Of a stretch of 3,400 bases of DNA, positions 1,297 to 3,319 are shown piece after piece (positions within the stretch are counted from its first letter, which is position 1; each line of letters starts with the position of its first letter). The stretch is from a phage. The position numbers and the translations under genes are program-made. Where the stretch lies: sequence record PZ195128.1; one strand, given 5' to 3'. Below the pieces are notes generated by a model that did no database searches, had not been told where the DNA came from, and saw only the letters and a program-made list of their open reading frames with translations.

Positions 1297-1689
1297 ATGG
1301 CAACTTTACGCAGTTTCGTACTCGTCGATAATGGCGGTACGGGGAATGTTACTGTCGTTCCTGTTAGCAATGCCAACGGCGTCGCTGAGTGGCTTTCTAA
1401 TAACTCGCGCAGTCAAGCTTATCGCGTGACTGCCAGTTATCGTGCGTCAGGCGCGGATAAGCGCAAATACACCATCAAACTTGAAGTACCGAAAATCGTT
1501 ACTCAAGTTGTAAATGGTGTTGAGCTGCCTATCTCCGCATGGAAGGCTTATGCCTCCATTGACCTGACCATCCCTATCTTTGCGTCGACCGACGATGTGA
1601 CCGTTATTTCCAAGTCACTCGCTGGCCTGTTCAAGGTCGGGAACCCTGTAGCCGAGGCTATCTCTTCTCAGAGTGGCTTCTACGCTTAA
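1297..1689 (+). CDS. cp: Major coat (capsid) protein, 130 aa
   Basis: The translation MATLRSFVLVDNGGTGNVTVVPVSNANGVAEWLSNNSRSQAYRVT...RKYTIKLEVPKIVTQVVNGVELP...LTIPIFA...GNPVAEAISSQSGFYA carries the hallmark levivirus coat blocks (FVLVDNGGTG, NGVAEW, SRSQAY, RKYTIK, GVELP, LTIPIFA). From memory it is near-identical to the phage GA coat protein. Size is typical (about 130 aa). Stop TAA at 1687-1689. Confidence 0.97.
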   Translation: MATLRSFVLVDNGGTGNVTVVPVSNANGVAEWLSNNSRSQAYRVTASYRASGADKRKYTIKLEVPKIVTQVVNGVELPISAWKAYASIDLTIPIFASTDDVTVISKSLAGLFKVGNPVAEAISSQSGFYA

Positions 1690-1880
1690 TGGGTCTGAAA
1701 GCAAAACATAAGGAAAACCTATGTTCCGATTCACAGAGATCGAAAAGACTCTATGTATGGATCGCACTCGCGATTGTGCTGTCCGATTTCACGTCTATCT
1801 TCAGTCATTGGATTTGGGGTCTTCTGATCCTCATTCTCCGGACTTTGATGGACTTGCCTACCTTCGTGATGAGTGTTTAA
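1689..1880 (+). CDS. lys: Lysis protein (L-type single-gene lysis protein), 63 aa, overlapping the coat stop and the replicase 5' region
   Basis: ATG 1689-1691 shares its A with the coat stop codon (TAATG). The ORF is in a third frame and overlaps the first 160 nt of the replicase gene. The product has a basic, polar N-terminus (KAKHKENLCSDSQRSKR) followed by a hydrophobic segment LYVWIALAIVLSDFTSIFSHWIWGLLILIL containing an L-S dipeptide. This resembles the MS2 L protein core (LYVLIFLAIFLSKFT). Position, size and architecture match levivirus L proteins. Confidence 0.85.
   Translation: MGLKAKHKENLCSDSQRSKRLYVWIALAIVLSDFTSIFSHWIWGLLILILRTLMDLPTFVMSV
1705..1725 (+). promoter_or_regulatory. Translational operator-like hairpin enclosing the replicase start codon (candidate coat-protein binding site)
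   Basis: Seen in sequence: 5'-AACAU-A-AGG-AAAA-CCU-AUGUU-3'. Lower stem 1705-1709 pairs with 1721-1725, one A is bulged (1710 or 1711), upper stem 1711-1713 pairs with 1718-1720, and the loop is AAAA (1714-1717). The replicase AUG (1721-1723) lies in the 3' arm, and the replicase Shine-Dalgarno AAGGA (1710-1714) lies in the bulge, upper stem and loop. The architecture (bulged purine, 4-nt A-rich loop, AUG in the 3' arm) parallels the MS2 operator ACAUGAGGAUUACCCAUGU. Confidence 0.7.
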
Positions 1881-3319
1881 CTAAACATCCCTCACTTGGA
1901 GACAGTAATTCGGACGCACGCCGTAAGGAATTGGCATATGCCAAACTTATGGATAGTGATCAAAGATGCAAAATCCAAAACAGTAACGGATACGACTACT
2001 CTCATATCGAGAGTAGCGTACTGAACGGTATACTCAAGACCGCTCAGGCCCTTGTGGCGAACTTACTTACGGGTTTTGAATCTCACTTCCTGAACGATTG
2101 TTCATTCTCCAATGGAGCCTCACAAGGGTTCAAGTTGCGGGATGCAGCGCCGTTTAAGAAGATCGCTGGGCAAGCAACCGTTACAGCTCCTGCTTATGAC
2201 ATTGCCGTGGCCGCCGTTAAAACGTGCGCGCCGTGGTATGCTTATATGCAGGAAACGTATGGCGATGAGACCAAATGGTTTCGTCGGGTATACGGCAACG
2301 GTTTGTTTTCTGTTCCGAAGAACAATAAAATAGATCGGGCTGCCTGCAAGGAGCCTGATATGAATATGTACCTTCAGAAGGGTGCGGGATCTTTTATAAG
2401 AAAACGCCTCCGCTCTGTCGGTATAGATCTTAACGATCAAACGTGCAATCAGGAATTAGCCCGACTTGGCAGCATTGATGGATCGCTCGCTACTATTGAT
2501 CTTAGTAGCGCTAGCGATTCTATCTCTGACCGTCTTGTCTGGGATTTACTTCCACCGCACGTTTATTCATACCTCGCCCGTATCCGCTCATCTTTCACGA
2601 TGATTGATGGTCGGCTACACAAGTGGGGTCTATTTTCTACCATGGGTAATGGCTTCACATTCGAGCTCGAGTCCATGATTTTCTGGGCTCTGAGTAAGAG
2701 TGTTATGCTGTCCATGGGTGTTACTGGCTCATTAGGCATCTACGGGGATGATATAATTGTCCCTGTTGAGTGTGCTCCAACTCTCCTTAAGGTATTATCC
2801 GCTGTTAACTTTCTTCCTAATGAAAGGAAGACGTTTACTACGGGTTACTTTCGCGAAAGTTGCGGTGCTCACTTCTTTAAAGGTGCCGACATGAAACCTT
2901 TTTACTGCAAGCGGCCAATGGAAACCCTTCCCGATGTCATGTTGCTATGCAACAGGATAAGGGGTTGGCAGACCGTTGGTGGAATGTCAGATCCGCGGCT
3001 CTTTCCAATTTGGAGAGAATTCGCTGATATGATTCCGCCGAAGTTTAAGGGTGGATGCAACCTGGATCGCGACACTTACCTCGTTTCACCTGATAAACCC
3101 GGTGTCACATTGGTTCGTATCGCTAAGGTACGCTCTGGTTTTAACCACGCGTTCCCGTACGGTCATGAAAATGGCCGCTACGTCCACTGGTTGCATATGG
3201 GATCGGGAGAAGTTCTCGAGACCATATCCTCCGCCAGGTTTAGGTGTAAACCTAACTCGGAATGGAGAACACAGATCCCTCTATTTCCTCAGGAATTAGA
3301 GGCCTGCGTTCTCTCCTGA
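1721..3319 (+). CDS. rep: RNA-dependent RNA polymerase (replicase beta subunit), 532 aa
   Basis: Long ORF containing the catalytic YGDD motif (GIYGDDIIVP). Extensive blocks I recognise from the MS2 replicase: DPHS.DF...AYLRDE.LTKHP.LG, FSNGAS.G.KL.DAAP.KK, VPKNNKIDRAACKEPDMNMYLQKG, SVGIDLNDQ, GS.DGSLATIDLSSASDSISDRLVW, FSTMGNGFTFELESMIFWA, RKTF..G.FRESCGAHF, KPFY, GGMSDPRL, PQE. Stop TGA at 3317-3319 followed immediately by TAG. Confidence 0.97.
   Translation: MFRFTEIEKTLCMDRTRDCAVRFHVYLQSLDLGSSDPHSPDFDGLAYLRDECLTKHPSLGDSNSDARRKELAYAKLMDSDQRCKIQNSNGYDYSHIESSVLNGILKTAQALVANLLTGFESHFLNDCSFSNGASQGFKLRDAAPFKKIAGQATVTAPAYDIAVAAVKTCAPWYAYMQETYGDETKWFRRVYGNGLFSVPKNNKIDRAACKEPDMNMYLQKGAGSFIRKRLRSVGIDLNDQTCNQELARLGSIDGSLATIDLSSASDSISDRLVWDLLPPHVYSYLARIRSSFTMIDGRLHKWGLFSTMGNGFTFELESMIFWALSKSVMLSMGVTGSLGIYGDDIIVPVECAPTLLKVLSAVNFLPNERKTFTTGYFRESCGAHFFKGADMKPFYCKRPMETLPDVMLLCNRIRGWQTVGGMSDPRLFPIWREFADMIPPKFKGGCNLDRDTYLVSPDKPGVTLVRIAKVRSGFNHAFPYGHENGRYVHWLHMGSGEVLETISSARFRCKPNSEWRTQIPLFPQELEACVLS
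1749..1838 (+). other. Predicted transmembrane segment of the lysis protein (with L-S dipeptide at 1779-1784)
   Basis: Residues 21-50 of the 63-aa product are almost entirely hydrophobic or aromatic (LYVWIALAIVLSDFTSIFSHWIWGLLILIL). Codons CTG TCC at 1779-1784 encode L-S in the lysis frame. Confidence 0.6.
2741..2752 (+). other. YGDD catalytic motif (RdRp motif C) within the replicase
   Basis: The codons TAC GGG GAT GAT at 2741-2752 encode Y-G-D-D in the replicase frame, within GIYGDDIIVP. Confidence 0.9.

Follow-up and report, generated by a model that had tools for sequence, protein, structure and literature searches.

A GA-type lysis gene at the junction of the coat and replicase genes in a strain-level variant of genogroup II RNA coliphages

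Experiments have been published on relatives of the lysis protein considered here, from the RNA coliphages KU1 and MS2. Expressed by itself from pBAD24, the single-gene lysis protein (Sgl) of KU1 is sufficient to lyse E. coli (PMC10614894; PMC10229422). The incorporation of mDAP goes on until lysis, and the blebs that form are small and dispersed, which places the protein among the type II Sgls (PMC10614894). The KU1 and MS2 Sgls have a complex set of multicopy suppressors in common, and the suppressor profile of KU1 Sgl groups with those of MS2, PRR1 and Hgal1 and not with those of the MurJ inhibitors M and PP7 (PMC10229422). For MS2 L, insertion into membranes, oligomerization through the transmembrane/hydrophobic part and binding to DnaJ have been described, and the lesions that it causes begin in the outer membrane (PMC10688784). 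The part of MS2 L that binds DnaJ is its N-terminal domain, and other L-like proteins may not need DnaJ (PMC10229422). The four-part domain layout that we use below to describe L proteins is also taken from that study (PMC10229422).

The sequence analyzed here, which we refer to as the window, is a 3400-base stretch of DNA that contains almost the whole genome of a levivirus of genogroup II (GA/BZ13, Emesvirus japonicum). In a megablast search against 50,697 phage records, phage GA matched it at 94.6% identity across all 3400 nt, the BZ13 strains DL10 and DL20 at roughly 94.6-94.7%, and KU1 and T72 at about 86% (85.6% over the whole window in the case of KU1). All five are F-specific RNA coliphages of genogroup II assigned to the species Emesvirus japonicum. 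The window corresponds to GA positions 29-3429 and lacks 28 nt from the start of the GA genome and 37 nt from its end. An exact-sequence look-up in a collection of 15 billion proteins returned no entry identical to the L or coat proteins of the window, and on this basis we regard the window as a new strain-level variant; the look-up shows novelty of the strain only. Taken together with the missing genome ends, it points either to a group II strain that has yet to be deposited or to a truncated assembly.

Three large open reading frames (ORFs) lie on the same strand and encode a levivirus maturation protein (Pfam profile match, E 1e-62), the coat protein and the replicase beta subunit; the coordinates of the latter two, and of the features discussed below, are collected in Table 1. 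For the maturation gene, the program-made list of ORFs gives a start at GTG 78, and the relatives annotate an ATG that is equivalent to window position 108. In front of that ATG, GGAGG at 99-103 forms a Shine-Dalgarno match stronger than that of any other of the four genes in the window (-9.5 kcal/mol). A search of the entire window against Rfam at gathering thresholds returned no family matches; the replicase operator hairpin of group II phages and the terminal genome structures go undetected by the curated RNA families of the library searched.

The lysis gene L opens with an ATG at 1689, closes with a TAA at 1878-1880 and encodes the 63-residue product MGLKAKHKENLCSDSQRSKRLYVWIALAIVLSDFTSIFSHWIWGLLILILRTLMDLPTFVMSV. 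Its start codon shares one base with the stop codon of the coat gene in a UAAUG arrangement that is also found in GA, DL10 and DL20, and its overlap with the replicase gene extends over positions 1721-1880. Coat, lysis and replicase genes are read in three different frames, as their starts at 1297, 1689 and 1721 leave remainders of 1, 0 and 2 on division by 3. The frame of L is +1 relative to that of the replicase, meaning that L codons begin one base after replicase codons, as they do in MS2 and in the layout of the family. The original prediction, made from the letters of the sequence alone, had called for a 63-aa ORF at 1689-1880 in a third frame, overlapping the coat stop codon and 160 nt of the replicase gene, and each of these particulars is confirmed by the sequence. 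The length of the ORF would not be a sufficient argument, since alternative-frame ORFs of 61, 73 and 82 aa occur elsewhere in the window and the length of L alone is hence not beyond chance.

Table 1. Positions of the lysis gene, its protein segments and the neighboring genes and signals in the window.
Feature	Position	Strand	Basis or remark
Coat protein gene	1297..1689	+	Pfam Levi_coat E 1.4e-37; annotated in GA, DL10, DL20, KU1, T72
Hairpin, 11 bp, one bulge, loop UCUC; 9 nt upstream of L start	1654..1680	+	Folding -12.5 kcal/mol, z = -2.7
UAAUG: coat stop (1687-1689) and L start (1689-1691), one base in common	1687..1691	+	Read from sequence
Lysis gene L (sgl), 63 codons plus stop	1689..1880	+	ORF; GA CDS 1717..1908 'put. 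lysis protein'; PF11125 above cut-off
L residues 1-20, basic N-terminal segment (domain 1), net charge about +4	1689..1748	+	
Replicase operator hairpin (putative coat-protein binding site), with replicase AUG 1721, inside the L frame	1705..1725	+	GA record feature 1733..1753 'pot. binding site coat protein'
Replicase beta-subunit gene	1721..3319	+	Pfam RNA_replicase_B E 3e-219; first 160 nt dual-coding with L
L residues 21-32, hydrophobic LYVWIALAIV followed by Leu-Ser (L31 S32, nt 1779-1784)	1749..1784	+	Aligns with MS2 L 38-49
L residues 33-63, hydrophobic C-terminal part	1785..1877	+	33-48 invariant; 49-63 hold most amino acid variation

The identity of the gene is given by its relatives. 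The L ORF coincides base for base with the lysis CDSs of GA (at an offset of 28), DL10 and DL20, and the lysis CDSs of KU1 and T72 match it except for an insertion at the start codon. These genomes are collinear with the window at nucleotide identities of at least about 85%, with their lysis CDSs at equivalent coordinates, and the predicted L protein is 94-98% identical to the lysis proteins of GA-type and KU1-type phages (97% for KU1). Such correspondence supports the reading of 1689-1880 as an ortholog of the lysis gene annotated in GA, in the BZ13 strains DL10, DL20 and T72, and in KU1. It also disposes of the suggestion that this was a gene hidden within other genes, because the public GA genome record already annotates a putative lysis protein at this place and the KU1 ortholog has been characterized experimentally. 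L is hence an already known gene of the GA type, found here in a new strain-level variant and carrying an allele that is identical to no public sequence. It may nonetheless serve as a reminder that gene callers that forbid overlaps will miss genes of this kind.

The relationship to MS2 L is more distant. The Pfam profile PF11125 (Phage_MS2_lysis) matches L with 30.6 bits, above its cut-off of 25 (E 3.3e-7), and the match runs from residue 6 to residue 53 of L on positions 2-46 of the 54 in the profile. The family phrog_8450 matches L with an E of 1.8e-32, and NCBIfam holds no model for L. L aligns with the lysis proteins of both GA and MS2, the BLASTP comparison with MS2 L giving 43% identity over 51 residues (E 1e-10) with the Leu-Ser pair in register. 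The core motif LYV.I.LAI.LS.FT, on which the original prediction had founded its claim of similarity to MS2 L, is present exactly in both proteins, as LYVWIALAIVLSDFT in the window and as LYVLIFLAIFLSKFT in MS2. At the nucleotide level, the MS2 and GA sequences are not alignable at L by megablast, and a tblastn search of all phage records with L (E <= 1e-3) returned group II genomes only, so that it is the Pfam profile and the pairwise comparison that connect L with MS2. Judged by these two comparisons, the L protein of the window is a true sequence homolog of MS2 L.

The protein displays the domain layout of the family, with a basic N-terminus, a hydrophobic segment, a Leu-Ser dipeptide and a variable C-terminus. 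Residues 1-20 include six K/R and one H against two D/E, and the LS dipeptide occurs only once, at residues 31-32, which bears out the basic N-terminus and L-S dipeptide that had been predicted. The single hydrophobic helix that was part of the same prediction calls for some qualification. An AlphaFold2 model computed from the single sequence shows one long helix that covers residues 5-55, with a break at P57 and mean pLDDT values of 90-96 in the 10-residue blocks spanning residues 21-50. However, the hydrophobic stretch is 43 residues long (21-63) and is interrupted by D33, H40, R51 and D55, and its insertion energy is marginal. On the translocon scale, insertion of L would cost +2.6 to +3.0 kcal/mol, about the same as MS2 L. 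Kyte-Doolittle means over 19 residues peak at 1.77 (residues 21-39) and 1.84 (residues 45-63), both above 1.6. When the hydrophobic segment was shuffled, 1051 of 5000 shuffles were equally good, the composition itself being hydrophobic, and the control is thus uninformative. Association of L with the membrane is plausible by analogy, and a classical transmembrane helix would be putative.

Conservation of the L frame provides a further line of evidence. No stop codon breaks the frame in any of the six complete group II genomes, nor in three metagenomic contigs, whereas alternative-frame ORFs of 73, 82 and 45 aa are interrupted in KU1 and T72. Across the six genomes, 9 of the 160 sites in the overlap between L and the replicase gene are variable; for the remainder of the replicase gene the figure is 321 of 1439 (Fisher p = 5e-8), making the overlap about four times less variable. 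The same is seen at the third codon positions of the replicase, where 4 of 53 vary in the overlap and 215 of 479 elsewhere (p = 1.6e-8, six genomes), and in the comparison of the window with KU1, in which a single replicase codon of 53 differs in the overlap and 179 of 479 differ downstream. Within L, residues 21-32 are invariant in nine group II sequences, amino acid changes cluster in residues 49-63, and codons 17-48 show just two substitutions, both of them silent in L and both changing the replicase (E8K in T72 and L32M in DL10). The overlap offers in this sense a clean example of dual-coding constraint.

These figures could also be read without a lysis protein, if the stretch were conserved for the N-terminus of the replicase and for RNA elements such as the operator hairpin and long-range pairings, with the L frame left open by chance. 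The window does contain alternative-frame ORFs of 61-82 aa that arise by chance, and 60-nt windows starting at 1321, 1381, 1921, 2101 and 2281, all of them outside L, are equally invariant in the six genomes. It follows that RNA structure or replicase constraints contribute to the pattern, and that low variability should not be credited to L alone. A 32-codon alternative-frame ORF with an ATG start inside the coat gene (1331-1429) likewise remains open in all six genomes merely because its region never varies; as it sits where almost no sites differ, its conservation is uninformative on coding. Yet a frame left open by accident would hardly score above the curated cut-off of PF11125, or find its counterpart in MS2 L in a protein comparison although the nucleotide sequences cannot be aligned by megablast. 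Nor would it be expected to stay unchanged at the very codons where two substitutions alter the replicase, or to have an ortholog in KU1 that is lytic by itself (PMC10614894). We consider it extremely improbable that the frame is a non-coding by-product; both the homology and the conservation of L are beyond chance.

The near-invariant islands outside L deserve a comment of their own. They cover 1321-1440, 1921-1980, 2101-2160 and 2281-2340, with 0-3 variable sites per 60 nt where 10-25 are usual, and the region of the last one (window 2294-2382) shows 92% identity to phage fr, a match between genogroups. RNA structure or essential replicase motifs probably account for these islands.

The signals around the start of L suggest how the gene may be expressed. 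The hairpin that lies just upstream corresponds to a feature in the GA record (1683..1707, 'pot. function in lysis gene control'), and its 3' arm contains the sole Shine-Dalgarno-like element, a weak GAGUGG at 1671-1676, 13-18 nt upstream of L. Pairing of the 22 nt upstream of the L AUG with the 3' end of 16S rRNA amounts to -3.2 kcal/mol, which is no better than 46% of all genome positions and hence at background level; the corresponding values are -9.5 kcal/mol for the maturation gene, -6.1 for the coat gene and -6.2 for the replicase gene. The inner stem of the hairpin is kept in seven genomes, and a consensus fold of these seven revealed no compensatory changes. The comparative data neither support nor contradict this hairpin beyond its stability in single sequences. 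The operator hairpin, located within the L frame itself, folds at -4.9 kcal/mol (z = -2.8) and is invariant in six genomes. A search for pairing over long distances, between the coat gene and the region where the replicase and L genes start, yielded just two short inverted repeats (1409-1418/1424-1433 and 1472-1479/1844-1851), and neither of them includes the start region. The second of these is a perfect 8-nt complement (CCATCAAA and TTTGATGG) with one arm in the coat gene and the other in the 3' portion of the overlap between L and the replicase gene, and it may be due to chance.

The UAAUG motif is the classical arrangement for translational coupling. In MS2, translation of L is reportedly activated by termination in the coat gene (Berkhout et al. 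1987). The combination of a weak Shine-Dalgarno element, an upstream hairpin and UAAUG fits a restart by ribosomes that terminate on the coat gene, and we infer that translation of L is coupled to coat termination. Under this model, the lack of a useful Shine-Dalgarno sequence and the stable hairpin would keep expression of L low and tied to coat synthesis. Ribosomes completing the coat gene would open the hairpin and terminate at the UAA, and a fraction of them would then restart at the overlapping AUG of L.

It is also conceivable that ribosomes bind the start of L independently, whenever the local structure opens, and not after coat termination. In KU1 and T72, an 18-nt insertion separates the UAA from the UG, and L starts with UUG; with such a gap between coat stop and L start, direct overlap of the two codons cannot be essential. 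The upstream hairpin is weaker in DL10 (-10.2 kcal/mol) and in DL20 (-8.6 kcal/mol). Independent initiation would, however, have to make do with an anti-Shine-Dalgarno complementarity at background level, placed 13-18 nt upstream and enclosed in a hairpin, and it would leave aside both the classical coupling arrangement at this junction and what is reported for MS2. We regard independent initiation as unlikely, and termination-reinitiation as the reading that the start region favors. The KU1-type insertion has a structure of its own: it gives rise to CUACGCC-UAA-GGCGUAG, a perfect hairpin of 7 bp in which the coat stop codon forms the loop, and the UUG start of L follows 18 nt downstream. This stop-codon hairpin is found in KU1 (1708-1737), in T72 and in the sequence L009 (600-629), and is absent from the window and from GA-type strains.

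Taking these observations together, we propose that 1689-1880 is almost certainly the single-gene lysis gene (L, sgl) of a GA/BZ13-type genogroup II coliphage, encoding a 63-residue peptide that would be targeted to the membrane, would act in the type II mode and would probably be expressed in coupling with the coat gene. In this peptide, a basic N-terminal segment is followed by a predicted hydrophobic helix with Leu-Ser at its end and then by the hydrophobic C-terminal part. Its homology to MS2 L and to the experimentally tested KU1 protein suggests that it would accumulate in the cell envelope late in infection and trigger autolysis while net peptidoglycan synthesis remains uninhibited, which is what is meant by a type II Sgl. 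Its 97% identity to KU1 Sgl suggests that the allele of the window should likewise be lytic and act as a type II protein.

A type I protein, blocking a specific step in the supply of peptidoglycan precursors such as the lipid II flippase MurJ, could in principle have the same appearance. The Sgl of PP7, at first counted among the L-like proteins for its architecture, later proved to be rescued by MurJ (PMC10229422), a case showing that architecture alone does not fix the mechanism. The protein of the window differs from PP7 Sgl in that its homology to MS2 L is real at the sequence level, and its 97%-identical relative in KU1 permits mDAP incorporation until lysis and produces type II blebs (PMC10614894), with a suppressor profile like that of MS2 and not like those of M or PP7 (PMC10229422). 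A type I mechanism thus appears very unlikely, and we retain the type II assignment. Dependence on DnaJ may differ from that of MS2 L, given that the N-terminal segment is shorter than in MS2 L (20 residues against 37) and poorly conserved with respect to it.

Of more interest than the gene itself is what type II lysis proteins, MS2 L and the GA and KU1 L proteins among them, act on in the host, a question that the window makes no more testable than the strains already known do. The core of L (residues 17-48) nevertheless stays fixed even where the overlapping replicase frame accepts amino acid changes. It could mark a surface that contacts the host target, a tentative idea to which we give rather less than even credence. 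If it were true, the GA-type protein would become a compact probe for the host target of type II lysis proteins.

Among named systems, those closest to the gene of the window are the lysis genes of GA, DL10 and DL20, which occupy the same position and frame, have the same length of 63 codons and begin at the same UAAUG. As in the window, GA-type lysis genes have a hairpin upstream and the operator hairpin inside the ORF. The allele of the window is distinguished by the combination of Q16, I49, R51 and S62, where GA has E16, Y49, Q51 and N62. KU1 and T72 stand somewhat further away, with their UUG start behind the 18-nt insertion and one extra residue in the protein. MS2 L resembles the protein of the window in its homologous core, its basic N-terminus, its hydrophobic C-terminal half and its +1 ORF over the start of the replicase gene, and its L48 S49 align with L31 S32 of the window. 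It differs in having 75 residues, 37 of which precede the LYV core compared with 20 in the window, and in a gene that starts 50 nt inside the coat gene (1678, with the coat gene ending at 1727), whereas L of the window overlaps only the coat stop codon; the C-terminus of GA-type L is, in turn, five residues longer than that of MS2 L. The L-like proteins of PRR1, Hgal1, C-1 and AP205 are small and share the four-part layout (PMC10229422; PMC7693330). No sequence similarity to MS2 L can be detected in them (PMC7693330), in contrast to the L protein of the window.
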